A stretch of DNA of 64,000 nt from Afipia sp. (GCA_041905905.1 JAYRKE010000009.1:70842-134841); one strand, 5' to 3'; positions 29,522 to 48,239 are shown, counted from the stretch's first letter. The notes: a model not told the origin generated them from the letters alone. A program made the numbers and translations.

Positions 29522-29741
29522 CCGCCTTGCGGCGAGGGAACACTCCGCACATACGCAGTAAGCGATTGAGATATAGGGCAGTCATGGAGACGCTCGGCTG
29601 GTCGACCGACGGCGTCACGCCGAGCGATTAAGGTTTCGTTAACCCTATTCTCCTTGCCACGCCGGGAGAATCGCACATACTGGCGCTAAATTGGGTTAGG
29701 TGCCGCATTCTGGCGCTATTTTATTCTCGGAGTCGATTAAA

Positions 29742-30944
29742 ATGGGTGCGCTTCCACCTTTCGAGTTTGACGAGAAGATCTTGGCCCAGGGCGCTGAGAT
29801 CTCCCGCCGTCTCGACCAGCTTCGGAACGAAAAATTCCCTCCCGACGCCAAGAAGACGCTTCGGCGTTTCCCAATGGCGGAGGTCGCTCACTATCTCGGA
29901 ATCAGCTCCAATAACCTGAAACGACTTCATTTGGAGGGCAAAGGACCAGAACCTCAGCAGGAAACCGGAGGACGACGGTTCTATACAGCCGAGCAAATGA
30001 CGGAACTTCGTCACTACCTCGATAAAAACGGACGGTCCGATGCCAAGCAATACGTCCCGTGGCGCAAGCCTGGCGAGAAGCTTCAAGTCATCGCGGTCGT
30101 TAACTTTAAGGGTGGCTCCGGAAAAACAACGACGGCCGCACATCTCGCTCAGCACCTTGCATTGACGGGCCATCGCGTGCTCGCGATTGATCTCGACCCG
30201 CAAGCATCGCTTTCGGCTCTTCACGGTTTCCAACCCGAGCTTGACGGCAACCCCTCTCTCTTTGACGCGATCCGATACGATGACCAGCGTCGGCCGATCG
30301 CCGACATCATCTCTCCCACGAATTTTCCGCTCTTGGAGATCATCCCAGCCAATCTCGAGCTGCAAGAATTCGAGTTTGAAACGCCTGTGGCGATGCAAGA
30401 TGAAAACCCGGAAATACAAATCCAGGGCAAACGATTCTACAACCGGCTAGGCCACTCGCTGTCGGAGATCGATGACCGTGTGGACGTTGTCGTGATCGAT
30501 TGTCCCCCTCAACTCGGATTTCTAACCCTCACCGCCCTCACCGCCTCGACATCTGTGCTCGTGACGGTTCATCCGCAGATGCTGGATTTGATGTCGATGA
30601 GCCAGTTCCTGCTCATGCTCGGCTCCTTCGTCAAAAACCTCAGAAAAAGCGGGGCGCCGGTCAAGATCGATTGGTTCCGATACCTGATCACTCGGTACGA
30701 GCCTACCGACGTGCCGCAAGCTCAGATGCTCGGCTTCATGCAGTCGATGCTGGTCGAGGAAATCTTGAAGAACCCGATGCTGAAGTCCACGGCGGTTTCG
30801 GACGCGGGTCTGACGAAGCAAACGCTGTACGAGGTTGAGAAAGCAAGCTTCAACCGCGAGACCTACGACCGCGCGATCGAAGCCCTCGACGCTGTCAATT
30901 TCGAGATTCAAGGCCTGATCCATCGTGCATGGGGGAGGCTATGA
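29742..30944 (+). CDS. repA: Plasmid partitioning ATPase RepA
   Basis: N-terminal HTH, deviant Walker A KGGSGKTT, AIDLDPQASLS, IDCPPQLG, PQMLD. Confidence 0.95.
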   Translation: MGALPPFEFDEKILAQGAEISRRLDQLRNEKFPPDAKKTLRRFPMAEVAHYLGISSNNLKRLHLEGKGPEPQQETGGRRFYTAEQMTELRHYLDKNGRSDAKQYVPWRKPGEKLQVIAVVNFKGGSGKTTTAAHLAQHLALTGHRVLAIDLDPQASLSALHGFQPELDGNPSLFDAIRYDDQRRPIADIISPTNFPLLEIIPANLELQEFEFETPVAMQDENPEIQIQGKRFYNRLGHSLSEIDDRVDVVVIDCPPQLGFLTLTALTASTSVLVTVHPQMLDLMSMSQFLLMLGSFVKNLRKSGAPVKIDWFRYLITRYEPTDVPQAQMLGFMQSMLVEEILKNPMLKSTAVSDAGLTKQTLYEVEKASFNRETYDRAIEALDAVNFEIQGLIHRAWGRL

Positions 30945-31016: not shown

Positions 31017-32012
31017 ATGGCTCGTAAGAACCCCTTCGCCAAACTCCTGGATGCTGATGCCCGGCCGGCGGATCACGCTGCTGTCGAGTATGCCGCCAAA
31101 GGCGCATCACGCACGATCCTGAGCACGCTAGACGAGATGGCAGCGCGCGCCGACCAACTGGCAGCCGGCGAGGCAATCGTCGAGATCGACCCAAACCTGG
31201 TCGACCCATCGTTCGTCCGCGATCGCAGAGCCGAGGACGAGAAGGAGTTCGAAGAGCTCCTAGAGGCAATCCGCGAGAACGGTCAGAACTCACCGATTCA
31301 GGTCCGCCCTCACCCAAGGTCGCCCGGGCGCTACATGGCTGTGTTTGGCCACCGCCGCATCCGTGTCGCAAAGACGCTTGGTCGCAAAGTGCGAGCCGTG
31401 GTGAAGGAGATCGCGGACCGCGAGCACATCATCACGCTGGGACAAGAGAACTCTGCGCGCGCTGACGTGCCGTTTATCGAACGTGCGCTGTTTGCCGCCG
31501 ACGTAGCGCGCCTTAAGCATGACGAGGACAACTCCATCGTTCTGAAGGCCCTATCCGTCGACCGGCAGACACTGTCCAAGATGCTGTCCGTGGCGAGTCT
31601 TCCTGCCGCCGTGCTGGAGGCTATCGGTGAGGCCAAGGGCGTCGGACGCGATCGCTGGTATGAGCTCAAACTGCTGATGGACAAGCCGTCCAATCACGAT
31701 CTTGCGGTCGATGTGATCGGTGAAGACGCTTTCCGGGATCTCTCCAGCGAAAGCCGTTTCGATTGGCTCGTCCAGCGTCTCAAAGCGGGTCGGCCGACGA
31801 AGCGAAAGCGATCTGCGACGGAGAAGCGCAAATGGGTGCCCGCCAATAGCTCGATGTCCGCTGAAATAATCGCGGACACGAGACGCTTCACCCTTGCAAT
31901 CAAAGCCAAGGGCGCAGAGGCGCGTGAGTTCGGCAACTACCTCTCAGAGCACCTGGACCGCCTTTACGAGGCGTTCCAGCAGGACTCGGCACACAGCAGA
32001 AAGGAACCGTAA
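31017..32012 (+). CDS. repB: Plasmid partitioning protein RepB (ParB family)
   Basis: IDPNLVDPSFVRDR, GQNSPIQVRPHP, FGHRR, GQENSARAD. Confidence 0.95.
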   Translation: MARKNPFAKLLDADARPADHAAVEYAAKGASRTILSTLDEMAARADQLAAGEAIVEIDPNLVDPSFVRDRRAEDEKEFEELLEAIRENGQNSPIQVRPHPRSPGRYMAVFGHRRIRVAKTLGRKVRAVVKEIADREHIITLGQENSARADVPFIERALFAADVARLKHDEDNSIVLKALSVDRQTLSKMLSVASLPAAVLEAIGEAKGVGRDRWYELKLLMDKPSNHDLAVDVIGEDAFRDLSSESRFDWLVQRLKAGRPTKRKRSATEKRKWVPANSSMSAEIIADTRRFTLAIKAKGAEAREFGNYLSEHLDRLYEAFQQDSAHSRKEP

Positions 32013-32171: not shown

Positions 32172-32297
32172 ATGGACAGAAATTTTGTGACGCCGCCCTA
32201 CGGGTGGCGAACGACGTCGCTTGCCCAAACGTCCAATGCAGCGCTCGATCGACGAGTAATATCCGCTGTCGAAGCCAGCGGAGGCGGCCATGAATAA
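32172..32297 (+). other. 41-codon upstream ORF resembling a canonical RepC N-terminus
   Basis: AGGTGAAGGA RBS; MDRNFVTPPYGWRTTSLAQ... resembles the RepC start MxxxxVTTPFGRRxxTLA; its TAA (32295-32297) overlaps the repC ATG (32290). Confidence 0.55.
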
Positions 32298-33792
32298 ACA
32301 CGCCGCCGGCCTGCGCAAATCATCGTTGGAATCTCTCGGCGGCCAGCAGCTCGCCCGCGGCTTCCGCGAGGGCACCGACGCTTACGTGGTCTCTCGCACG
32401 GGAGCGCTGCGCGTGGCGAAGCGTGCTGCGGCGGCGATGGGCCTGAAGGCTGCGAAGATCGCGCTGATCGACCAGCTTTTCGCGGCCTCTAAGCCGGGAG
32501 ATTGGGGCGTTCCGGGCCAGGCACCGATCGTGTGGCCATCCAATGCCAGCTTGGCGCGCGGCCTTGGGGTATCCGTCTCAACGCTGAAGCACCACCTCAA
32601 GGGCCTCGTGCAGGCCCGCCTCATCACCTACAGCGACCATCCAACCTACCAGCGACGTGGCCGCCGCGACGCCGCCGGCAAGATCGTCGAGGCCTATGGC
32701 ATCGATCTGTCGCCGATCGCGGCACGCTTCGCAGAGCTGACCGACATGGCCGAGGCGGCCGAGTACCAGGCTCGTGAATGGAAGCGCCATTCCTACCGCC
32801 GCACGGTGCTCCGCAAGGAGATCCAGTCGCTGATCCTCAGCGCCACCCAGCACAAGCTGCCGGGCCCGTGGAGCCATCACCAAGCGCGCCTGGACGTTCT
32901 GAGGGAGCAGAGGCCGGCTGGTCTTGATGAGTTGGTCGCCCAGGTCGAGGGGCTCGAGGAGCTTCTGGAGGCTGTGGAGGAGGCCTACCAGACGGGATTT
33001 GAGGAACAAAATTTCAATACCGCGGTATCAAAATTTCGGCCCCTACAAACTACAGCCGAATCCCTTAACTCTGAAAAAAGTAATCAAAACCCTGAACAGC
33101 GTCGCGCTAACGCGCGACAAATTCTTTCCCCGGAGGCCTTCGGCCTTTCAGCCGAAAAAAAGTCTGACGCTGATTCTGCGCCCCGACAATCGACAAAACT
33201 GGCCTCTAGAGCCCTGGAAGAGGATGTTCAGTTCATTTCCTTGCCACTGATGCAGTCGGCCTGCCCGGCGGTTGAGCAATACGTCCCAGGCGCCTTCGCG
33301 GATTGGCGGACATTGCGCGAGGCGGGCCGGACGCTGTGCGTCTCGGTCGGCATCAACCCGCAGGTCTGGCAGGAGGCAGTCGGCATCCTGGGGCCTGATC
33401 TGGCGGTCGCCGCGGTCGCCGTCACCGTGCAAAAATCGGAGCTCGGCGCCGTGTCCAAGCCTGGGGCCTATCTGCGCACGCTGGCGCAGCGGGGCCGGGA
33501 CGGCAAATTGCACATCAGCCGGTCGCTATTTGCCTTGGCCAAGTCCGGTCAGGCGGCCGATATCGGCGACGATATGGGGTCGTTGGAAACGCCGGAGTTT
33601 CCGGCGATGGGCTCGATTGCCTACACACACTGGCGGGATGTGGTCCGCAATAACGCTCCAGCGCCGGCACCTGACTGCGACACCGTTGCCCGCGCGTTCC
33701 GCGGCTGGGCAAAGACCCGCGGCATCGACCTCACGGCGCCGAATATCGAGAAGGTGTTCGCCGGATTCTGCAAGAAGTGGAGGGTGAATTGA
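32290..33792 (+). CDS. repC: Plasmid replication initiator RepC with a C-terminal extension
   Basis: PIVWPSNASLARGLGVSVSTLKHHLKGLV, RRDAAGKIVEAYGIDLSP, VSKPGAYLRTL; internal AT-rich segment about 33000-33200. Confidence 0.88.
   Translation: MNKHAAGLRKSSLESLGGQQLARGFREGTDAYVVSRTGALRVAKRAAAAMGLKAAKIALIDQLFAASKPGDWGVPGQAPIVWPSNASLARGLGVSVSTLKHHLKGLVQARLITYSDHPTYQRRGRRDAAGKIVEAYGIDLSPIAARFAELTDMAEAAEYQAREWKRHSYRRTVLRKEIQSLILSATQHKLPGPWSHHQARLDVLREQRPAGLDELVAQVEGLEELLEAVEEAYQTGFEEQNFNTAVSKFRPLQTTAESLNSEKSNQNPEQRRANARQILSPEAFGLSAEKKSDADSAPRQSTKLASRALEEDVQFISLPLMQSACPAVEQYVPGAFADWRTLREAGRTLCVSVGINPQVWQEAVGILGPDLAVAAVAVTVQKSELGAVSKPGAYLRTLAQRGRDGKLHISRSLFALAKSGQAADIGDDMGSLETPEFPAMGSIAYTHWRDVVRNNAPAPAPDCDTVARAFRGWAKTRGIDLTAPNIEKVFAGFCKKWRVN
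33000..33200. other. Putative oriV inside repC
   Basis: Visibly AT-rich tract within repC with GANTC sites and a 28-bp dyad AAATTT-ca-ATACCGCGGTAT-ca-AAATTT (33009-33036). repABC origins are known to lie inside repC. Confidence 0.6.
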
Positions 33793-33800
33793 CGCCCGGC

Positions 33801-34862
33801 TCAGAGGCCGGCGGCCTTCGTCAAGTTGACGCGGAAACGGTCGCGGCGGCGCTGGTAGCCCCGGGTCTGCTCGGCGCTGGCATGGCCGAGCTGCTTCTGG
33901 ACGTAGCGCTCGTCGACCTCAGCCGAGGAGGCGAGGCCGGCGCGCAGGGAATGACCTGCGAATTTCCCCTTCCGGTCGCCTTCGGGCAGATCGGCCCGCA
34001 CGCCGGCGGCGAGGGCGGCGGCCTTGACCAAACGCGCCACCTGCTTGTCGGTCAGCCGGTCCGGCCCGACGTCCTTTCCGCCGCCGCGGACCCGGCGGAA
34101 CAGCGGTCCGTGCCCGATTCGGGCGAGCTTGAGCCAGGTCTGCAGGGCAACAACCGGGCAGGTGGCGTCAGACGAGCCGCGGCCGATCTCGACCTCGCGC
34201 CAGCCCGTTTTGCCGCGCAGGGTGACGACCATGCCGTCCTTGAGGATCTCGCCCCAGCCGCTGCCGTCCTCGGTCTGCTCCGGCCCGACATCGAGGCCGA
34301 CGATTTCGGAGCGCCGCAGCCCGCCGGCAAAGCCCAGCAACAGCATGGAGCGGTCGCGCAGGCCGCGCAGGCTGCCGCGATCGAGCGTCTCGAGCATGGC
34401 GATGATGTCCTCAGGCAGAACGGCGTCCTTCTTCACGGGCGGGCGGCCGTGGGTGCGCCGGATGCCGGCGAGCACGGTCGCGACGTGGCGGTCCTGGCGG
34501 TCGAAGGCGAGGCCGCGCTGGCGGAACTGCCAGCTCAGGGCGGACAGCCGCCGCTCGATCGTTGACACGGCATCGGGCTTCGCGCCTGCTTTCCCGGCGG
34601 CGCAGGCGGTGATGTAGAGCCCGATGGTCTGGACATCCGGGGGCAGGGGATCGAGGCTTTGCCGCCGGCACCAGACACTGTAGTGCCGCCAATCCGCCCC
34701 ATAGGCGCGGCGAGTGTTCTCGGCGCTGGACGCTTTGATGTAGTCGCGCGCCCGGTCGACGAGTGGCGCGAGATGAGCCGGCATGCGGGGAGGGGAGGTT
34801 TCCGTCACGTCCCGCACCTTGTCCGGAGAGTCATCGCCAGGGGAAGGTGATCGCGTGCTCAT
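33801..34862 (-). CDS. Tyrosine recombinase (plasmid multimer resolvase, RinQ-like)
   Basis: SAENTRRAYGADW, RDRSMLLLGFAGGLRRSE, TLRGKTG, GHSLRAG, QLGHAS...TRGY. Confidence 0.92.
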   Translation of the reverse strand: MSTRSPSPGDDSPDKVRDVTETSPPRMPAHLAPLVDRARDYIKASSAENTRRAYGADWRHYSVWCRRQSLDPLPPDVQTIGLYITACAAGKAGAKPDAVSTIERRLSALSWQFRQRGLAFDRQDRHVATVLAGIRRTHGRPPVKKDAVLPEDIIAMLETLDRGSLRGLRDRSMLLLGFAGGLRRSEIVGLDVGPEQTEDGSGWGEILKDGMVVTLRGKTGWREVEIGRGSSDATCPVVALQTWLKLARIGHGPLFRRVRGGGKDVGPDRLTDKQVARLVKAAALAAGVRADLPEGDRKGKFAGHSLRAGLASSAEVDERYVQKQLGHASAEQTRGYQRRRDRFRVNLTKAAGL

Positions 34863-34895: not shown

Positions 34896-34927
34896 TTGAC
34901 ATTGTGGATGATCTCATGTACGTACAT
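34896..34927 (+). promoter_or_regulatory. TA operon promoter/operator
   Basis: Perfect -35 TTGACA at 34896-34901; perfect palindrome ATGTACGTACAT at 34916-34927 over the -10 region; extra TGTAC half-sites upstream. Confidence 0.6.
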
Positions 34928-34955
34928 TGGCTGCATAGAGAACGAGTTTTGCGCC

Positions 34956-35234
34956 ATGTCCCGCGTCGCCCTTGATGACACCAACCGCATGAACCTGCGG
35001 ATCAAGCCTGAGGTGAAGGCACGGCTGCTGCGTGCGGCTGCGCTACGCCACACGGATCTGACCAGCTTCGTCACACAATCCGCCTTGCGTGAGGCTGATG
35101 CGATCATTGCGGAAGCGGACGTCGTGAAGACCACGGAACGCGACTTTACTCGCATTCTCGACCTCCTGGACAATCCGCCGAAGCCGAACGCCAAGCTCCG
35201 CGCGGCCGCTGCCGCATTGCCCAAATCGCTGTGA
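34956..35234 (+). CDS. DUF1778 RHH antitoxin (TacA/AtaR-like)
   Basis: RMNLRIKPEVKARLLRAAAL, LTSFV, FTRILDLLDNPPKPNAKL. Confidence 0.9.
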   Translation: MSRVALDDTNRMNLRIKPEVKARLLRAAALRHTDLTSFVTQSALREADAIIAEADVVKTTERDFTRILDLLDNPPKPNAKLRAAAAALPKSL

Positions 35235-35758
35235 CGGTTTCTGCCTGGCACGAGGAGGCAATCACAAAGGCCCATGACCGAAAGGCCTTCGACTGCGGCG
35301 ACGACGCTCTGAACACGTTCTTGCTGCGGTTCGCGCGCCAAGGGCACGAACAGAACGCCGTCAAGACGTTTTGCGCCATCGCCGATGATACGCCAAACAA
35401 GGTCCTCGGTTTCTACAGTATCACTCCGGCCTCGGTCGCCCATGACGCTGTGCCGCCGGCAATGACCAAAGGGCTCGCTCGCCATAGGATTCCGGGATTT
35501 CTGCTGGCCCGGCTCGCCGTAGATAAGACGGTCGCGGGCCGGGGGCTCGGCGGACAGCTTTTGCTGGCTGCGGCCTTGCGCTGTCTTCGGGTGACGGCGG
35601 AGGTCGGCGGTGTTCTGATGATCATCGAAGCCAAGAACGAGCGCGTGGCGCAGTGGTACGCAGGCTTCGGCGCCGAGCCGCTCGCCGACCAGTCGCTGAC
35701 GCTCGTCGCCCCACTCGCCACCTTTGCGGCCGCGCTCCAGACCTCCGGCCATCTCTGA
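35231..35758 (+). CDS. GNAT acetyltransferase toxin (TacT/AtaT-like)
   Basis: HDRKAFDCGDDALNTFL, VLGFYSI, LLARLAVD, GRGLGGQLL, AQWYAGFG; GTGA overlap with the antitoxin. Confidence 0.9.
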   Translation: MTVSAWHEEAITKAHDRKAFDCGDDALNTFLLRFARQGHEQNAVKTFCAIADDTPNKVLGFYSITPASVAHDAVPPAMTKGLARHRIPGFLLARLAVDKTVAGRGLGGQLLLAAALRCLRVTAEVGGVLMIIEAKNERVAQWYAGFGAEPLADQSLTLVAPLATFAAALQTSGHL

Positions 35759-36029: not shown

Positions 36030-36965
36030 ATGCCCTCGCGCGCGCGAATCCTTCCCGAACCCCCGCCGACCGTTGCCCCGATGCCGGACTGGGCGCGGGT
36101 CGAGCGGCACGAAAACCCCTTTGAAGGGCCGATATTTCTGGCCGGCGCGGCGCTCGCCGCGCTGCATCCGGCCGCGCGTCACGATCACCCGATTGGCGGG
36201 CTCTGGCGCCAGCGCCTGGCGCTGAAGGCGGCGGCGGCCGTCGCCGGCGTCGTCGGCCGCCGCGAAGACGAAAGCGGTCTGCGCGACGCGCATTATCTGA
36301 CCAAGGCCGGAGACGACCCGGGTCCGGCCGGCAAGCTGTTGCGCGTCTACCGGGCGATCGGCGATCCGCACCGTCTCGCCTCGGACGAATGGGCCGAGGA
36401 CGTGCTGGACCTCCTCGACCTTCGCGACAGCGCCGAGGCCGGACAATTGTTCAGGGAGATTGGTCGGGCGATGTCGCAAACCGCCGGACCTGTGCAGGCC
36501 GCGGCGCGCGCGGCGGCGGCCTGCCTCTCGCTTGGAGCGACCGGACGAATTCTTGCGCCCTGGGTGGCCGACATGCTGCTCGCGCAGCGGCTGCGCTGGC
36601 GTGCGCCAATCCCACTGCTCGCCATCGGCTTGCGCTCCGGCGACTGGCGTTCGGCGCGCGAGGGGCGGACGGATCTGTGGGAGGATTGCTGCGCGCTGGC
36701 CTACGCCCGCGCCGCCGCCACGGCCCTTGACCTACATGCCGACCTCGGCCGTCGCGCCATGCAGCTCCTCGAGGCAACCCCGAAACTGCGCGGCAAGGAG
36801 GCGAGCGCGATCGTGGAGCGGTTGCTCGCCGAAGACGCGCAATCCGCCTCGGCGGGTCGCATGACGAGCGATCGCTCGAGCCGCCGCCTGTTCGAGCGTC
36901 TCGTTGAGCTCGGCGTCGCGCGCGAGCTGACGGGGCGCCCCACCTTCCGACTGTACGGGCTCTGA
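36030..36965 (+). CDS. DUF1403 family protein
   Basis: WRQRLALKAAA, LRDAHYL...DPGPAG, DMLLAQRLRW, C-terminal wHTH SDRSSRRLFERLVELGVARELTGRPTFRLYGL. Confidence 0.85.
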   Translation: MPSRARILPEPPPTVAPMPDWARVERHENPFEGPIFLAGAALAALHPAARHDHPIGGLWRQRLALKAAAAVAGVVGRREDESGLRDAHYLTKAGDDPGPAGKLLRVYRAIGDPHRLASDEWAEDVLDLLDLRDSAEAGQLFREIGRAMSQTAGPVQAAARAAAACLSLGATGRILAPWVADMLLAQRLRWRAPIPLLAIGLRSGDWRSAREGRTDLWEDCCALAYARAAATALDLHADLGRRAMQLLEATPKLRGKEASAIVERLLAEDAQSASAGRMTSDRSSRRLFERLVELGVARELTGRPTFRLYGL

Positions 36966-36967
36966 CC

Positions 36968-37657
36968 ATGGGCCGGCGCGCACGCAAGACCGAAGCGCTC
37001 GACACCGAACTGGCGGACCTGCCGCCGGAGCTGCGCTGGCGCGAATGGATGGGGCGGGTCGAGGCCGTGATCTTCGCGTCGCCCGAGCCGGTGACGCGCG
37101 AGGCGCTGACCCGCGTCGTCGGCCGCGAATGCAATATCGATCTGATCATCGACGACATTCGCGAAGAGCTGCGCGGCCGTCCCTATGAGCTCGCATCCGT
37201 CGCCGGCGGATTTCAGCACCGCACCCGCAAGGCGTTCGCGCCGGCGATCCAGACTGCGACCGGCCTGGGCCACCAGGTGCGCCCGCTATCCCAGCAGGAG
37301 AGCCTGATCCTGATGTGCATCGCCTATTACCAGCCGATCACCCGTGGGGAGCTTGGCCAGTTCTTCGGCAAGGAAGTTAGTCGTGATCTGATTGCCCATC
37401 TGCGCGGTCTCGGTTTCATCGCATCCGGCCCACGCGCGCCCCAGCCTGGCGCGCCCTACACCTACGTCACTACCAACGGGTTCTTGTCCCACTTCGGCTT
37501 CAATACGCTGCGCGACCTGCCGAACATGGAGATGCTCGAGGACGCCGGGCTGCTCAGCAAGGAAAAATTGTTGGCAGGGGATTTTCCGTTGCTGCCTGCG
37601 GACGAGGCCGTCGACGTTGAGCAGAACCTCGACGACGATGACGATACGGCCGGCTGA
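36968..37657 (+). CDS. scpB: SMC-Scp subunit ScpB, plasmid-type
   Basis: RVEAVIFASPEPV, VAGGFQHRT, IAYYQPITRGEL, GAPYTYVTTNGFLSHFGFNTLRDLP; 2-bp gap after DUF1403. Confidence 0.9.
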   Translation: MGRRARKTEALDTELADLPPELRWREWMGRVEAVIFASPEPVTREALTRVVGRECNIDLIIDDIREELRGRPYELASVAGGFQHRTRKAFAPAIQTATGLGHQVRPLSQQESLILMCIAYYQPITRGELGQFFGKEVSRDLIAHLRGLGFIASGPRAPQPGAPYTYVTTNGFLSHFGFNTLRDLPNMEMLEDAGLLSKEKLLAGDFPLLPADEAVDVEQNLDDDDDTAG

Positions 37658-37936
37658 ACGGAGATGTTGCATCGAGCGCACGCTTTTGCCGCGGCGCGCG
37701 CTCCCGTTTTTCCTACCAGGGCGAGCGACAAGACAAGCCGGCGCGGCAAGTCGAACGCGCGGCGCCTCGCACCTGATCAGCAAGCGCGATTCGTGGCGCT
37801 CTGCAAGAGCTGATTTCTCCTAGCCCTAATCACGTCCCGGCTAGCTGCCCTGTGGGCGAAAGCGCTAATCTTACCGACGATACCGATTCTCGCGGGAGAC
37901 ATCCCAGACAACGGAACGCTCTGGACACGATTACCG

Positions 37937-39424
37937 ATGGCAGAGGCAGCGGCCAGGTTTGAAGCGTTGCGGACGTCGGTCACAGCGATGCCGCACAACA
38001 TCGAGGCCGAGCAGGCCCTGCTGGGCGCGATTTTCATCAACAACGACGCGTTCTATCGGGTATCGGACTTCTTGAAATCGGATCATTTCTTCGAGCCACT
38101 GCATCGCGCGATTTTCGACGTGATGGCCAGCTTGATCGAAGCGAACAAGATCGCGAGCCCTATCACGGTCAAGACCTTTCTTCCGGCCGACTTGAATATT
38201 GGCGTGCTGTCGATCTCGCAGTATCTCGCGCGGGTCGCGGCCGAGGCCACGACCGTGATCAACGCTGTAGATTATGGCCGCTCCATCTACGACCTCGCGA
38301 TCCGTCGTGAGCTGATCAACATCGCGGACGACATCCGCGATGCGGCGTTCAATTCAGCCGTTGACTCCGCGCCGCGCGAGCAAATCGAGCATGCAGAGCA
38401 GCGTCTCTACGAGGTCGCAGAAACAGGGCGGTTCGGCAGCGGTTTCGAGACATTTGATGCGGCCTTGACGCAAGCGATCGACAAAGCCGCTCTCGCCTAT
38501 CAAAGCGACGGGAATCTCTCGGGGCTGCCGACAGGTCTCAAAGACCTCGACACAATGATGGGAGGGCTCCAGCCGTCGGACCTCATCATCATCGCCGGCC
38601 GACCCGGCATGGGCAAGACGTCGCTCGCAACGAACATCGCCTACAACGTCGCAAGAGCTTACCAAGCGCCCGATGCGAGCACGCATTCTCCGCAAAACCA
38701 TTCCGGCGGCATTGTTGCCTTTTTCTCGCTTGAGATGTCATCCGAGCAGCTTGCGACGCGGGTCATTGCTGAGCAGTCGGAGATCTCGTCTTCAAGCATC
38801 CGGCGTGGCAAGATCTCCGAAGGCGATTTTGATACGCTTATTCGGCGCCGGCAGGACATTCGGCGCATACCATTGTTTATCGACCAGACGGGAGCGCTGA
38901 CGGTCGGCCAAGTGGCCGCACGCGCGCGGCGGCTGAAACGACAGCGCGGTCTCGACCTGATCGTCGTCGATTACATCCAGCTTATGCAGGGCGCGACTCA
39001 GCGGGCCGCACAGAATCGCGTGCTTGAGCTGACCGAGATCACGACCGGCCTGAAGGCTCTGGCCAAGGAACTCGACGTCCCGATCGTCGCGTTGTCGCAA
39101 TTGTCGCGAAACGTCGAGAACCGGGAAGAGAAGCGCCCGCAGTTGTCGGACCTGCGCGAATCCGGTTCGATCGAGCAAGACGCCGACGTCGTATTGTTTG
39201 TATTTCGCGAAGAATACTACCTCAAGAATCGAGAGCCGATGGCCGGTACCGAAGCTCACCTCAAATGGCAGGCGGAGCTTGAGGCATCGCGTGGAAAGGC
39301 TGAGATCATCATCGGCAAGCAGCGGCATGGCCCGACAGGGGCCGTGAACCTGTCGTTTCAGGGCGAGTTCACGCGATTTGCCGATCTCGCTGACGCGAAC
39401 CGGGTCCCAGTTCGGTCCCTGTGA
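37937..39424 (+). CDS. dnaB: Replicative DNA helicase DnaB (extra, plasmid-borne copy)
   Basis: PHNIEAEQALLG, IAGRPGMGKTS, FFSLEMS, VDYIQLM, LSQLSR, SDLRESGSIEQDAD, KQRHGPTG; full length at 495 aa. Confidence 0.95.
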   Translation: MAEAAARFEALRTSVTAMPHNIEAEQALLGAIFINNDAFYRVSDFLKSDHFFEPLHRAIFDVMASLIEANKIASPITVKTFLPADLNIGVLSISQYLARVAAEATTVINAVDYGRSIYDLAIRRELINIADDIRDAAFNSAVDSAPREQIEHAEQRLYEVAETGRFGSGFETFDAALTQAIDKAALAYQSDGNLSGLPTGLKDLDTMMGGLQPSDLIIIAGRPGMGKTSLATNIAYNVARAYQAPDASTHSPQNHSGGIVAFFSLEMSSEQLATRVIAEQSEISSSSIRRGKISEGDFDTLIRRRQDIRRIPLFIDQTGALTVGQVAARARRLKRQRGLDLIVVDYIQLMQGATQRAAQNRVLELTEITTGLKALAKELDVPIVALSQLSRNVENREEKRPQLSDLRESGSIEQDADVVLFVFREEYYLKNREPMAGTEAHLKWQAELEASRGKAEIIIGKQRHGPTGAVNLSFQGEFTRFADLADANRVPVRSL

Positions 39425-39447
39425 CGGCCGCGAGGGCCACGATCTCC

Positions 39448-39490
39448 GGACAGAATGCGGGACAAATGGGACAATCTGGACAAACGGACC
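39448..39490 (+). repeat. Five GGAC(A/C) direct repeats, mostly 9-bp period
   Basis: GGACAG 39448, GGACAAA 39460, GGACAAT 39469, GGACAAA 39478, GGACC 39486, upstream of the Xre/MbcA antitoxin. Confidence 0.65.
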
Positions 39491-39531
39491 ATCACGGGCT
39501 ATATTTCGGCATGACCCGAAGGAGCAACCCG

Positions 39532-40248
39532 ATGACGACCCGTCACACCGGCCAGGCCCGCCGATCCAATGTCGCAAGCCGCGTTGCGACGACGGTTCGC
39601 GATGCGCTGAAGAGCGAGCCGCGGCTGAAGCGGAGTGCCGTCGCGCTGTCGGCCCGGATCGCCGGCACGGCGGCCGCAGCCGTCGCGGACCTGCCCGAGG
39701 AAGCCCGCGCGACCTTGACGCGGCGCGAGCCGGAACTCATCACGCGCATCCGCGGCCTCGTCGAGGCCTTCGGTGAAACCGCCCGCCCTGCCCACATCGC
39801 GCTCGATTTTGGCCGCGAGGTCGAACCGCGCAAGGGTGCCGGCGTCGGCACGGTTGTCAGCGAGGCCGAGGGCGATGCGGCGCTCCACGAACTCGCGGTA
39901 GCGCGACGTCTTGAAGATTGGGCGGGCGAGGTTGCGGGCGCCAGCGCGTTACTGCGCGACTATGGGATCGCGCGTTCGAGCCTCCACCGCTGGCAACAGA
40001 ACGGCGATGTGATCGCCCTCCTGAAGGGCGCCAAGAAGCACGTCTTTCCGGTTGACCAGTTCATCGACAGCCGACCGGCCAAGGGGATTTCAGACGTGAT
40101 GGCGATCATCACCGATCCGCGCGTAGCCTGGCTCTGGCTCAGCCGCGCCAATCCCGTGCTTGGCGGCCGAAAGCCCATCGATCTGCTCAAGCGCGATCGT
40201 GTATCGGAGGTCGTCGAGGCCGCGCGTGACTATTTCACGCAACCATGA
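39532..40248 (+). CDS. Xre/MbcA/ParS-type antitoxin with HTH and long N-terminus
   Basis: GAAGGAG RBS; HTH-like RDYGIARSSLHRWQQNG; C-terminal PRVAWLWLSRANPVLGGRKPIDLL typical of MbcA/ParS toxin-binding domains. Confidence 0.8.
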   Translation: MTTRHTGQARRSNVASRVATTVRDALKSEPRLKRSAVALSARIAGTAAAAVADLPEEARATLTRREPELITRIRGLVEAFGETARPAHIALDFGREVEPRKGAGVGTVVSEAEGDAALHELAVARRLEDWAGEVAGASALLRDYGIARSSLHRWQQNGDVIALLKGAKKHVFPVDQFIDSRPAKGISDVMAIITDPRVAWLWLSRANPVLGGRKPIDLLKRDRVSEVVEAARDYFTQP

Positions 40249-40841
40249 GGCTCGACCAAGACGTTCTGCAGCGGCTGGCCGTGCGGATCGATGTCACGGA
40301 CTATGTTCGCGTCATCGATAACGCACACCGCGCGACACCGCTCGGCATGGGCGTCGGGCGCACGCGCTTCTCCAGCCCTGCCGACTCGTTCAAGCTGCTG
40401 TATCTCGCGCAGGACACTCGCACGGCCATCGCCGAGCGCATCGTGCGTGATCGTTTCCAAGGCAAAGCGCGGCGTGAACTGTTCGCGCAGGAGCTTCGCA
40501 GATTCTCTATCTTTGCAGTGAATAGTGTTGAGCCACTTTCGCTGATCGACTTGCGGCACGAGGGCGCAAGCCTCTTGGTCGCGCCGACCGATGCCGTCCG
40601 GGGCCGTGCCCATCAAGCCGGACGCGCCTTGAGCCAGCAGCTCTATGATCAGACGTCGGCCGATGGCGTTGTCTACATGTCGCGCATTACCAACCGTGAA
40701 TGCGTAGCCGTCTACGACCGCGCCGTCGTCGCGAAGCTCGCTGTCAAAGCTCCGGTGATGTCGCTTATTCGCTTGGCGTCACTGCCGGCGGACATACGGG
40801 CCTTGCATATTGCAGTCCTGGATGACAGCGATTACGGTTGA
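40245..40841 (+). CDS. RES domain toxin
   Basis: TRFSS, LYLAQDTRTAIAE, GVVYMSR, ECVAVYDR (R-E-S triad); ATGA coupling to the antitoxin. Confidence 0.88.
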   Translation: MRLDQDVLQRLAVRIDVTDYVRVIDNAHRATPLGMGVGRTRFSSPADSFKLLYLAQDTRTAIAERIVRDRFQGKARRELFAQELRRFSIFAVNSVEPLSLIDLRHEGASLLVAPTDAVRGRAHQAGRALSQQLYDQTSADGVVYMSRITNRECVAVYDRAVVAKLAVKAPVMSLIRLASLPADIRALHIAVLDDSDYG

Positions 40842-45408: not shown

Positions 45409-45945
45409 CTAGAATAAATACCGTTCGTCGGCCCAGCGCAGCAGCACCCAGGCGTCATTGTCGGGAAGGCGTACGCGGCCAGCACGTAGCCCCTCAGCAA
45501 TTGCGTCGCCGACTTCGGGCGAGACGCGGTTGCCATGCGTCATCAAAAAAAACCATCCGAACGGAAGGCGCACCTCCCGATCGATCGCCTCGATGCGATC
45601 CATGAGGATATGCACGGAAGCATCACCTGCTTCCAAACGCTCTTCCGGCAGATGCAGCGGTCGAGGAATGAACGCGAGCTCACGTTCGCCCTTGTGTTCG
45701 AAGTCGCGGATGTCGAGCGCCCAATGCTCGTAAACGCGACTCGCTCGCGCGCTTGACTCCTCCCAGTCCTGAAAGAACCGGACCTCGCGCCGGGTGAAAT
45801 CGAAGAAGTCCGGCTGCAAATCGAGAAATGGCGTCCGCGTGCCGTCGGAGCCGACCCAGGCGCTTCGTTCCAACTCCGGCCGTCGCGCCTCCCGCTTGTC
45901 GCGCTCGAGACGCGCGCATCGCGCGAGGAAGCTGCGGACATGCAC
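45409..45945 (-). CDS. Hypothetical protein, probably 5'-truncated
   Basis: [12 protein letters not shown]...HWALDI...FIPRP...[11 protein letters not shown]; begins exactly at the abiEii truncation junction. Confidence 0.55.
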
Positions 45946-45947
45946 GA

Positions 45948-46202
45948 CACCGTGACGTCGATGTCTTCGGAAAAGCGTTCGATCAGCCCATGCGCCTTCG
46001 ACAGAGACGTGCCGCCCTTGAACAGCAGACGCGGCCCTGCGGCTGGCCGCTCATGATAGAGGGCGTTGAGTGTCCAACAGACCCAGAAGTCCTTCTCGAC
46101 GTTTCCGATCGGCGTCCCGAGCCGGTTGGCCGTCGTTAGGAAGAGGTCGAGCCTCTCGTTCGCTGGCGCGAGGATGATCTCGTTATAGGCGACACTGCTC
46201 AT
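45948..46202 (-). pseudogene. abiEii: AbiEii nucleotidyltransferase toxin, truncated after about 85 aa
   Basis: [38 protein letters not shown], then homology is lost. Confidence 0.88.
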
Positions 46203-46870
46203 GCGTGAGTCTCTGGCACAGCGTCGGCGGGTCCGAGTAAAGGTCTGAGAAAATCCTGCATCCAAATCGGCATTGCCGACAGGCCTGCGCGAAGATCGTC
46301 GCAGATATCCTTTCCATGCTCGGGATTTTTGAACAGTCTGTTGAGGCCGTTCTTTATGGCCTCCCGATCGTTATCCCCCTCCATCATGTCTTGCATCCAA
46401 TAAAGCGCTTGAACGACCCGCATGCCCGGACGTCCAGCCCAATAGAGACGGCTCGGCGCGGCCGCCTTGAAATGGATGACCTGCTGTCCGAGCTTGATTG
46501 GTTTGAGGCGGGCGTCGACGAGAACTTCAATGCGCGCCGGCACGGCTGTGGTGAGGCCAAGATCGTTCGCGGCCGTCATTCCATCGACCACGATGCGAAC
46601 CTGGTCGCGACGCGCCACAGCTCTGATCACGGCGCGATAGTCGGGGACCCCCACCTTGCCCATGAGTTTGCTCATTCGCGGCCGGTCGTAGAGTCCACGA
46701 TCGATACGGCGTAACTCGCCAGCCGCGACCAAGCGCTGCAGCGTCTTGTCGACGGCCGCACGATTGCCGAGATCGGCGAAATCGCTCGGAGTCCATACCT
46801 CTCCTGGAGGTGCCCCGTTGATACGGGCGAGGAGTCGCGGCCGGAGGTCTGTGGTCGGCTTATCAAGCAT
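46199..46870 (-). CDS. abiEi: AbiEi-type (DUF6088-like) type IV antitoxin
   Basis: [50 protein letters not shown]; ATGA overlap with abiEii. Confidence 0.85.
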
Positions 46871-46938
46871 GTCCGAAATATGATGCAATTTTCGGACATT
46901 AGCAAGAGGTGTCCGAACGATACTGCATTTTTCGGACA
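46870..46938. promoter_or_regulatory. Two identical-arm operators TGTCCGAA-N13-TTCGGACA
   Basis: Copies at 46870-46898 and 46910-46938, 40 bp apart, directly at the abiEi start. AbiEi is known to autorepress through two inverted repeats. Confidence 0.75.
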
Positions 46939-47015
46939 TCATCTTTCCTTCCCGTTCTCTGATCGAACCCCGCAGAGCGATTCCGACGAGTCCGATTGAC
47001 TCTCGTGTGTGATGA

Positions 47016-47059: not shown

Positions 47060-47445
47060 ATGAGTACGTCCGCCCCCGATCTGTCGTGTCCGAGCTCCGG
47101 GCACGCATCGCCCGGCTAGAGGGCAGGATCGCGCATCAGCGCACAGTCCTGCCCTTCGGCCTGGCGGTGATCGACCGGATTCTTCCGGAAGGAGGGTTGC
47201 TGCGCGGGGCGCTCCATGAGGTCGCCGGCGACGGCAACGGCGCCGAGGACGGCGCGGCCGCCGCTCTGTTCGCCGCCGGCATCGCGGCGCGCAGCGGCGG
47301 CAAGGTGCTGTGGTGCGTGACGCGGGCCGACCTGTTCGCGCCGGCCCTCGCCCAGGCCGGGCTCGCGCTCGGGCGCGTTGTCTATGTCGAGTGCGGCGAC
47401 GAGCAGGCCCTGCTCGCCTGCTTCGAGGAAGGATTGCGGCATCCG
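47060..47445 (+). pseudogene. imuA: ImuA remnant (frameshift near 47081, 3' deleted)
   Basis: ELRARIARLEG, LPFGLAVIDRILPEGGLLRGALHEV, DLFAPALAQAGL, EEGLRH. Confidence 0.85.
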
Positions 47446-47965
47446 GGATCGCGCAGCTCTGTGCTCCACCGTGACCCGCTACAGATCGAAAGGTGCGCTA
47501 AGGGACGTCGGCAAGGCTTTGGGCTTGACCGAAGACACGATCAAGATGCTGTCCGGCCAAGTGTGGGGTTGGTCCCGCACCGGCATCGAGGACAAGCACG
47601 CCGCCGATCTCAACGTGAATCTCGGCGACCGACGCCTGCGCCTCGCGCTCGAGCTGGCGCGCGCGCTGATCGGCACGCCGCGCCATCTCAGCCAGCATCC
47701 GGGTCGTTTCGTCTCGACTCGCGATAGGCTCGACGACCTCGTGCCGATCGAACCTGCGGCGATGAAGGACCGCCAGGTGATTGAATGGGACAAGGACGAC
47801 GTCGACGCATTGCGCATGATGAAGATGGATTGCCTCGCACTCGGCATGCTGTCCTGCATGAAGCGCGCCTTCGATCTTCTGTCGGAGCACAAAGGCGTCG
47901 CGCTCGACCTCGCGACCATTCCCGCCGAAGACCCGCGCACCTACGCGATGATCCGGCGCGCCGAT
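47444..47965 (+). pseudogene. dnaE2: Internal fragment of error-prone polymerase DnaE2
   Basis: RDRAALCSTVTRYRSKGALRDVGKALG, PRHLSQHPG, VIEWDKDD, YAMIRRAD. Confidence 0.88.
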
Positions 47966-48070
47966 AACGCCGAGTGCGTTTGCGGCGTGCCGGAAGTTCA
48001 GATATTCGGCGACGGCGAGCGTCTGAATGAGCGACACCATAGGTATGCGTGCATCAAGCATTCGCTGCAT
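47966..48070 (-). pseudogene. LysR regulator N-terminal fragment (35 codons)
   Basis: MQRMLDARIPMVSLIQTLAVAEYLNFRHAANALGV, truncated before the SQS-VS helix at the dnaE2 junction. Confidence 0.7.
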
Positions 48071-48239
48071 TTGCTCTGAGTGATCGCGACTGCCCGATCG
48101 CCGACGCATTCTCTACCCCCAATGGCCTGGAGAAGATTTCACCGCCGCAGACGACAAGAAAACCTCATCGCTCCCCCGCGTCCAAGCACAGGACGCGGGG
48201 CAAATCTTTCTTCCTTGAGCGCGCCGGCAGGCCATCGGC

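Follow-up and report, generated by a model that had tools for sequence, protein, structure and literature searches.

The 64,000-nt stretch of Afipia sp. DNA that we analysed (GCA_041905905.1 JAYRKE010000009.1:70842-134841; hereafter the window) carries a full-length gene for the replicative helicase DnaB that is directly followed by a co-oriented toxin–antitoxin (TA) pair, an Xre/MbcA/ParS-family antitoxin and a RES toxin. The initial annotation had proposed that the three genes form a guard/decoy defence module, in which DnaB acts as phage bait and triggers RES, or alternatively a replication-autonomy module addicted by the TA pair. We consider it probable that they are instead two unrelated plasmid modules, an accessory DnaB and an autonomous MbcTA-like RES/Xre addiction cassette, which are neighbours by chance in one conjugative repABC plasmid lineage of Hyphomicrobiales, and the sequence evidence points to an adjacency that arose once in this lineage. 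Overall, the arrangement would be an ordinary plasmid architecture, with an addiction cassette next to a gene for an accessory helicase, and it illustrates how gene adjacency alone can mislead towards a defence-system reading.

The TA pair is present in many places without dnaB. At two loci (L058 and L059) the pair is 82% (antitoxin) and 81% (RES) identical and no dnaB lies upstream; nucleotide homology to the version on a related contig, L043, extends from ∼75 bp 5′ of the ATG, just before the repeats of the control region, to the RES stop codon, with unrelated DNA upstream and a different gene downstream. Because this homology is bounded by the repeats and the RES stop and comes without dnaB, the pair and its promoter make up a mobile unit of ∼1.4 kb. 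Among the genome loci with a RES relative (38–83% identity), 20 of 21 had no DnaB in the available flanks, which were examined up to 8 kb, some of the contigs being short. Homologous TA pairs without dnaB nearby were found at ∼29 loci (RES identity 38–72%), an outcome that had been set beforehand as telling against the guard/decoy proposal. The neighbouring genes at these loci include a DEAD-box helicase gene on a Ti plasmid (L007), sugar-utilisation genes on a Rhizobium plasmid (L008), AAA/PLD genes and dinB on a Nitratireductor plasmid (L009), rep, ssb and umuDC on a Caulobacter plasmid (L010) and, on metagenome contigs that carry the closest outside relatives, SLT and DUF3363 genes (L050, 72%), DUF736 and a second RES pair (L046, 70%) or AbiEii and phenol hydroxylase genes (L047-49, 66%). 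Most TA homologues lie on plasmids or in regions resembling integrative and conjugative elements (ICE-like regions), beside maintenance and transfer genes. Moreover, antitoxin homologues of ∼240 aa are widespread and their full architecture is unchanged in contexts that lack dnaB, hence the extra N-terminal domain of the antitoxin is not a dnaB-specific adaptation. We also noted that long-antitoxin RES cassettes lie repeatedly beside damage-tolerance or replication genes, namely dinB, SRAP, imuB-dnaE2, umuDC and ssb (L009, L010, L060).

Within the plasmid lineage that does hold both modules, each has been lost without the other. The dnaB–TA adjacency is confined to the window, L043/L044 and L060-63, and it is decayed in L015 and L062. 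The block formed by dnaB, the TA pair and a convergent gene for a conserved hypothetical protein, orf150, is common to the window and L043/L044 (DnaB 91% identical), where a hypothetical gene and an ATP-dependent ligase gene stand between the ScpB gene and dnaB; L060-63 (DnaB 90%) also carry the block, in an upstream context of AbiGi, HamA, DEAD/ResIII helicase and M78 peptidase genes. In L015, from Terripilifer ovatus (Roseiarcaceae), DnaB is intact at 495 aa and a ∼1 kb deletion, equivalent to 39414-40418 of the window, takes out the spacer, the antitoxin gene and the first 58 codons of RES, the catalytic Arg among them. In L062 the promoter, antitoxin and RES are intact and three quarters of dnaB is lost, only DnaB codons 371-491 being left. 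These natural ‘knock-outs’ of each part provide an unusually clean argument for independence. The flanks of L043 and L015 are 97–100% identical and their dnaB genes only 79–95%, the synonymous divergence (dS) being 0.55 for dnaB and 0.009 for the RES remnant; the histories are mosaic, dnaB alleles having been exchanged relative to TA alleles. The ratio of nonsynonymous to synonymous divergence (dN/dS) between the window and L043 is 0.08 for DnaB and 0.12 for both the antitoxin and RES, values that indicate purifying selection on all three genes.

The TA pair also has control signals of its own, within a 107-bp spacer (39425-39531) that separates the two modules. The initial annotation had pointed to a GTG at 39421 as an alternative antitoxin start; this codon is indeed there, overlapping the dnaB TGA, yet it is an unlikely start. 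The relatives L043, L060 and L062 end dnaB with TAA and have no such GTG, homologous antitoxins align only from residue 42–45 of the long open reading frame (ORF), and gene callers take the ATG at 39532 on 10 of 10 contigs. Hence, the antitoxin gene encodes 238 aa from this ATG and the spacer is real. The spacer contains GGACA-type direct repeats at 39447, 39459, 39468, 39477 and 39485, a run that overlaps the –35 element and that we infer to be a putative operator. The predicted promoter consists of a –35 TGGACA (39477-39482), a 17-bp gap and a –10 TATATT (39500-39505), which matches the sigma-70 pattern at 10 of 12 positions and is the only such match in the 3.9 kb between 37600 and 41500, where 0.7 would be expected by chance. 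A ribosome-binding site, AGGAG (39520-39524), precedes the ATG by 7 nt. L043, L060 and L062 conserve the repeats, the –35, the –10 and the ribosome-binding site, as do the dnaB-less L058 and L059; conservation among relatives does not extend to the 5′ part of the spacer, and in L058/L059 the sequence 5′ of ∼39458 is unrelated. The caution voiced at the outset, that the spacer has its own repeats and the TA pair may be independent, is thus well supported by signals that travel with the pair into a context without dnaB. In addition, the exact boundaries, promoter and putative operator are now defined for a long-antitoxin RES subfamily that is widespread but unstudied.

Transcripts were examined in eight metatranscriptome runs as Logan contigs, which hold no strand information, have unreliable depth and may include DNA carry-over. 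The 5′ half of the antitoxin gene was the most consistently assembled and best-covered part, and six RNA contigs start at 39523, 39529 (twice), 39542, 39558 and 39567, just 3′ of the predicted –10. This pattern fits a transcript start immediately downstream of the –10 element.

At the protein level, the antitoxin clearly matches the middle domain of its family (PF23125, 82 bits), is marginal for the C-terminal domain (PF09722, 24.4 bits against a cut-off of 24.5) and falls just below the cut-off for the N-terminal domain (PF23124, 22.9 bits). In its structural model (predicted local distance difference test, pLDDT, 82) an N-terminal helical domain (residues 4-83) is joined by a disordered linker (85-105) to the C-terminal half. 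We read the protein as a three-domain antitoxin, in which a winged-helix-turn-helix (HTH)-like middle domain and a putative C-terminal toxin-binding domain follow the linker. Structural matches of the C-terminal half are to the DNA-binding protein Rv2175c and, only weakly, to RES antitoxins; a sequence search of the antitoxin against the PDB returned only spurious matches. The RES toxin scores 63 bits for PF08808 (cut-off 23) and its start overlaps the antitoxin stop by 4 bp (ATGA). As initially described, a co-oriented antitoxin and RES toxin follow dnaB; they form a two-gene operon with the antitoxin first and its own promoter. R41, E64 and S146 of the toxin do not vary among 39 homologues, and an AlphaFold2 model made from these homologues reached a pLDDT of 86.7. 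In a Foldseek search the best match of this model was MbcT (6FKG; E 1.6e-7, TM-score 0.61–0.65), followed by VPA0770, NatT, ParT and the Pseudomonas putida RES; sequence and profile searches of the toxin against the PDB gave no true match and the fold search alone worked. In a 128.6-kb relative, RES was called as a protein of 269–271 aa and not 198 aa (L060 9714-10529, L063 9714-10523), which means that the gene apparently extends, or is read through, at its 3′ end into the region of orf150.

MbcT is an NAD+ phosphorylase that degrades NAD+ (PMC6436930), and the pair of the window shares with MbcT–MbcA of Mycobacterium tuberculosis (Rv1989c/Rv1990c) a RES toxin with conserved R, E and S, an upstream antitoxin gene, here with a marginal match to the family's C-terminal toxin-binding domain, and an overlapping operon. 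It differs from MbcT–MbcA in that phmmer and profile searches found no sequence similarity, identity in the structural alignment being ∼15%, and in that its antitoxin is twice as long, with the extra N-terminal helical and winged-HTH-like middle domains. Plasmid-borne RES–Xre pairs that have been studied experimentally stabilise plasmids, as with KnaAT on pLVPK-like plasmids of Klebsiella (PMC10896132) and SlvTA on the megaplasmid of P. putida S12 (PMC7301842), and a P. putida Xre–RES structure with promoter DNA is available (PDB 9R35, PMC12204516). Like these, the pair of the window is a RES/Xre pair on a large plasmid, and it would be expected to share their role in plasmid maintenance and the autoregulation of the antitoxin at its own promoter; unlike these, it belongs to a long-antitoxin subfamily of Hyphomicrobiales and Sphingomonadales, and its putative operator consists of direct GGACA repeats rather than palindromes.

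The helicase gene is equally intact, as the initial annotation had stated. The protein is an alphaproteobacterial-type DnaB of 495 aa that scores 748 bits against the NCBIfam model ‘replicative DNA helicase’ (NF006606, cut-off 540) and 87 and 338 bits for the Pfam domains PF00772 and PF03796. GRPGMGKT (221), LIVVDYIQL (341), SQLSR (387) and KQRHG (461) are all present, a motif set that covers Walker A, Walker B, H3 and H4/arginine finger, and dN/dS of 0.08–0.09 against L043 and L015 indicates strong purifying selection. Upstream of dnaB, L043 and L015 are again homologous from 37709 onwards, past a variable slot, homology to L042 starts at 37788, and homology to L060 starts ∼135 bp 5′ of the gene, so the region from 37709 to the start codon presumably is dnaB's own promoter or regulatory sequence. 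Two GANTC sites (CcrM-type methylation) at 37788 and 37885 lie in conserved blocks that are common even to the distant pHCG3 and L051/P0018 DnaB clades, a pattern that may point to control by the cell cycle or by methylation; a search upstream of dnaB for LexA (GTTCN7GTTC), DnaA-box and CtrA motifs gave none.

Relatives of this DnaB are found away from chromosomal loci and away from the TA pair. PLSDB contains 1308 plasmids with a DnaB match; that repABC plasmids normally borrow the host DnaB, as first assumed, stands only as a generality, for a DnaB with at least 60% identity to that of the window occurs in 34 PLSDB records, several of them multi-megabase replicons that are probably main chromosomes or chromids. 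Where the genomic surroundings were inspected, relatives above 69% identity were always plasmid-borne or in an accessory setting. The copies of Afipia carboxidovorans pHCG3 and of ISRA443 (77–78%) lie beside ArdC-like, DUF736 and ParB genes, those of PSBB068 and the P0018/P0023 clade (71–74%) lie between traM and a DUF3991-Toprim gene, and in L042 (85%) and L045 (81%) dnaB is found among cargo genes. A co-oriented adjacent TA pair is absent at these relatives (pHCG3, ISRA443, PSBB068, L042 and L045; 71–85%), and no TA pair stands beside the DnaB copies of Rhizobium and Phaeobacter plasmids either. The gene of the window is like the DnaB paralogues of pHCG3, of Bradyrhizobium and Rhizobium megaplasmids and of SPI-7-type islands (NF040583) in encoding a full-length DnaB on a mobile replicon, off the chromosomal rplI-dnaB-radA locus. 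It is unlike the pHCG3/ISRA443 copies, and unlike the P0018 clade with its neighbouring traM and Toprim primase genes, in lying beside repABC, DUF1403 and ScpB genes, and unlike the SPI-7-type helicase in scoring far below the NF040583 cut-off (338 versus 655 bits). We also observed that the DnaB of a Rhizobium plasmid is, like that of L043 and L015, near a DNA ligase gene (ligD).

The nearest DnaB found in the canonical rpsF-rpsR-rplI...dnaB-radA-purF context (P0084) is 66% identical, and multi-megabase chromosomal contigs of Phyllobacteriaceae have DnaB at 65–68%. A neighbour-joining tree had as chromosomal references Phyllobacteriaceae-type sequences together with a single record labelled Bradyrhizobium sp. 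Arg314, none of them a confirmed chromosomal copy from Nitrobacteraceae. In this tree the plasmid copies branch as a clade apart from the copies in chromosomal context, and this clade spans Afipia, Bradyrhizobium, a Xanthobacteraceae metagenome-assembled genome and Terripilifer (Roseiarcaceae). The dnaB of the window lies between the ScpB gene and the TA pair on a repABC plasmid, not in the rpsF-rpsR-rplI...dnaB-radA locus, and is therefore a plasmid paralogue and not the housekeeping copy. A recent copy of the chromosomal gene had also been considered at the outset, and on that reading dnaB would be a host duplicate without a plasmid-specific role; the protein is indeed of the alphaproteobacterial type and passes NF006606, a chromosomal equivalog model. 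However, because the closest copy found in chromosomal synteny is only 66% identical and the plasmid copies branch separately, DnaB is not a recent chromosomal copy, the strong purifying selection likewise speaks against it, and we give this explanation almost no credence. Comparison of the sequences suggests instead an old plasmid-borne clade. A coherent DnaB clade on repABC plasmids of several Hyphomicrobiales families bears on the question of where RepC-type initiators obtain their helicase in bacteria without DnaC; a literature search on plasmid DnaB of repABC replicons found nothing specific.

We propose that the first module is a self-contained dnaB cassette, made up of ∼230 bp of its own 5′ region and the gene, which would provide an accessory hexameric 5′–3′ helicase. 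This DnaB would probably serve as the helicase for RepC-initiated replication or in establishment after transfer, where it may aid complementary-strand synthesis following conjugative entry into hosts whose own DnaB is poorly recruited. Such a role fits the presence of the backbone in several families, the neighbourhood of dnaB in other clades, where genes of an establishment type (ArdC, DUF736, Toprim primase) surround it, and the frequent loss of the gene. Because dnaB is decayed on several related plasmids, being truncated on Bradyrhizobium japonicum plasmids and frameshifted on a B. betae plasmid, it seems useful but dispensable. The second module would be an autonomous type II RES/Xre cassette of ∼1.4 kb (39447-40841). 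Its antitoxin would neutralise the toxin through the C-terminal domain and repress its own promoter through the HTH domain, bound at the GGACA repeats that overlap the –35 element. After plasmid loss the antitoxin would decay, and the freed MbcT-like toxin would consume NAD+ and thereby stop or kill plasmid-free segregants.

Several observations weigh against a chance neighbourhood. No intrinsic terminator was predicted between dnaB and the antitoxin gene. Two RNA contigs run from dnaB into the spacer (39256-39481 and 39221-39485) and one (39437-39831) crosses the promoter and spacer into the antitoxin gene, thus some read-through, or DNA carry-over, is possible. The dnaB–TA–orf150 block has been held together in at least three diverged plasmids at 82–93% nucleotide identity, L060 having a different upstream context. 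Moreover, plasmids of a second DnaB clade (71%; P0018/P0023 and the B. betae plasmid) carry a distant long-antitoxin RES pair 1–2.6 kb upstream on the opposite strand (RES identity 34%, hhalign probability 99.7%; antitoxin C-terminal half, probability 77.5%), so the proximity of dnaB and RES recurs though the arrangement differs. We would rather explain this recurrence by a shared location of the two gene types, in those regions of conjugative elements that serve maintenance and establishment. A guard/decoy system, in which the plasmid DnaB would be bait for phage helicase loaders or inhibitors and its perturbation would free RES and abort infection, could draw on the following facts: the three genes are co-oriented and close, without a predicted terminator, the block persists in three diverged plasmids, one of which has it beside Hachiman-like and AbiGi genes, a distant RES pair lies near the second DnaB clade, and a RES–Xre pair of Legionella responds to genotoxic stress (PMC12457610). 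Nevertheless, comparison gives this idea no support and we regard it as extremely improbable, as the TA pair carries a promoter of its own and travels without dnaB, is found without dnaB at the ∼29 loci described above and is missing beside DnaB relatives of 71–85% identity. Each part has been deleted alone in nature (L015 and L062), the full-length antitoxin has the same architecture where dnaB is absent, dnaB alleles have been exchanged relative to TA alleles, and bait and effector do not co-occur across independent lineages. A PADLOC scan of DnaB, the antitoxin, RES, orf150, DUF1403, ScpB and the TacAT-like pair identified no defence family, the matches of DnaB being weak and at P-loop level only, and a literature search on DnaB decoys in phage defence found no such system.

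Further readings were weighed as well. The long-antitoxin RES/Xre subfamily might sense DNA damage or replication stress and be recruited repeatedly beside genes for plasmid replication and damage tolerance (two plasmid clades have dnaB there; elsewhere it is ssb, umuDC, dinB or imuB-dnaE2). It would then fire on perturbation of DnaB or the plasmid replisome, such as a phage helicase loader might cause, or a failure to become established after conjugation. If so, the adjacency to dnaB would be functional and not accidental. The GndRX pair of Legionella pneumophila is relevant here as a RES–Xre pair linked to DNA stress, but it is chromosomal, has a non-canonical activity and involves no DnaB (PMC12457610), the comparison having been made at family level, and we consider the sensor idea highly improbable. 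TA cassettes can stabilise neighbouring DNA, and the TA pair might specifically addict the dnaB region, shielding this segment from deletion so that the whole is a replication-autonomy unit, as the initial annotation had offered in its second proposal. The adjacency kept in the window, L043 and L060 would agree with this. Both parts of that proposal are probably real, but nothing ties the TA pair specifically to dnaB: L062 deleted dnaB and kept the TA pair, L015 deleted the TA pair and kept dnaB, and the slot upstream of dnaB is highly variable, which makes such protection quite improbable. A RES/Xre pair that acts independently of DnaB could also be mainly a stand-alone abortive-infection or stress module rather than a plasmid addiction system. 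TA systems, some of them in defence islands, can abort phage infection, relatives of the pair lie beside AbiEii, PLD/AAA and Hachiman-like genes, and an AbiEi-like gene is present in the window region too. We hold this to be unlikely, given that most homologues are on plasmids or in ICE-like regions with maintenance and transfer genes, that the plasmid-borne RES–Xre pairs studied so far stabilise plasmids (PMC10896132, PMC7301842) and that PADLOC returned no match, although the two roles are not mutually exclusive. Two independent modules in one plasmid lineage therefore remain our favoured account of the block.

Table 1. Features of the window around dnaB and the TA pair, with the RES pairs of the second DnaB clade
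Feature	Coordinates	Strand	Evidence or remark
trb genes	∼19.2 to 29.4 kb	minus	
repA	29700-30944	+	ORF; ParA/CbiA Pfam matches
repB	31017-32012	+	NCBIfam TIGR03454, 304 bits
repC	32290-33792	+	NCBIfam NF040974, 242 bits
Tyrosine recombinase/integrase	33801-34862	minus	XerD/XerC-like matches
TacA-like antitoxin and GNAT toxin pair	34896-35758	+	PF08681 TacA1, 78 bits; weak GNAT match
DUF1403	36030-36965	+	PF07183, 226 bits
ScpB-like	36968-37657	+	PF04079, 109 bits
dnaB 5′ region	37709-37936	+	Travels with dnaB; two conserved GANTC sites
dnaB, replicative DNA helicase, 495 aa	37937-39424	+	NF006606, PF00772, PF03796
TA control region	39447-39531	+	Repeats, –35, –10, ribosome-binding site
Antitoxin, 238 aa, Xre/MbcA/ParS family	39532-40248	+	PF23125
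RES toxin, 198 aa, MbcT-like ADP-ribosyltransferase (ART) fold	40245-40841	+	PF08808
orf150, conserved hypothetical protein, ∼150 aa	40854-41306	minus	Convergent with RES
RES pairs of second DnaB clade	L051 1930-3215; L064 2475-3772; L005 2592-3886	Opposite to dnaB	Between traM and traI

The plasmid-borne location assumed at the outset is borne out by the genes around the block (Table 1). The window represents a conjugative repABC plasmid, with a repA-repB-repC operon, trb mating-pair formation genes and an integrase gene; a profile search of the window proteins gave TrbE 1675 bits and TrbI 696 bits, and RepB and RepC score above their NCBIfam cut-offs. From the trb genes onwards the order is repA, repB, repC, integrase, TacA/GNAT, DUF1403, ScpB, dnaB, antitoxin and RES. 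The tyrosine recombinase probably serves in multimer resolution, and its place after repC is a conserved backbone position that is also seen in pHCG3 and Bradyrhizobium plasmids. The TacA/GNAT pair, which sits between the integrase and DUF1403 genes, is missing from L034, whose DnaB is identical to that of the window; thus TA cassettes come and go on this backbone. The DUF1403 and ScpB-like genes are kept as a pair after repABC and the integrase on more than 100 Nitrobacteraceae plasmids, dnaB being needed on none. ScpB is 83–91% identical to its relatives and DUF1403 only ∼50%; DUF1403 might partner ScpB on the plasmid, perhaps as a kleisin-like protein, and a literature search on DUF1403 found nothing specific. 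On the other side of the block, orf150 is 81–82% identical in four relatives (L015, L043, L060 and L062), survives the TA deletion in L015 and is absent 3′ of the dnaB-less cassette in L058/L059; it is outside the TA cassette, and its product has no significant family match, PADLOC included. Contigs encoding an identical DnaB numbered 23, the longest of ∼143 kb, and the DNA runs with this region are mainly wastewater, activated-sludge, bioreactor and sediment metagenomes.

Elsewhere on the plasmid we noted several variable or decayed features. The slot between the ScpB gene and dnaB (37658-37936) is a variable cargo site that is empty in the window; the hypothetical and ligase genes occupy it in L043 (1822-3672) and in L015, whose ligase gene looks frameshifted, and the AbiGi, HamA, helicase and peptidase genes occupy it in L060 (1-7195). 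Two features of the window, at 45412-46942 and 47378-48076, look decayed. In the former there is a DUF6088/AbiEi-like antitoxin gene (46202-46942, minus strand), but the intact AbiEii toxin gene that pHCG3, L033 and L060 possess is missing; the latter encodes 233 aa of a DnaE2-type DNA polymerase III alpha subunit, a fragment that looks like the remnant of an imuAB-dnaE2 cassette. The plasmid cargo (9200-10960, 16623-18344, 52890-53945 and 57148-60282) comprises a class I polyhydroxyalkanoate synthase, a dihydroxy-acid dehydratase, an ACR3 arsenite efflux pump and a CzcA-type heavy-metal resistance-nodulation-division pump.

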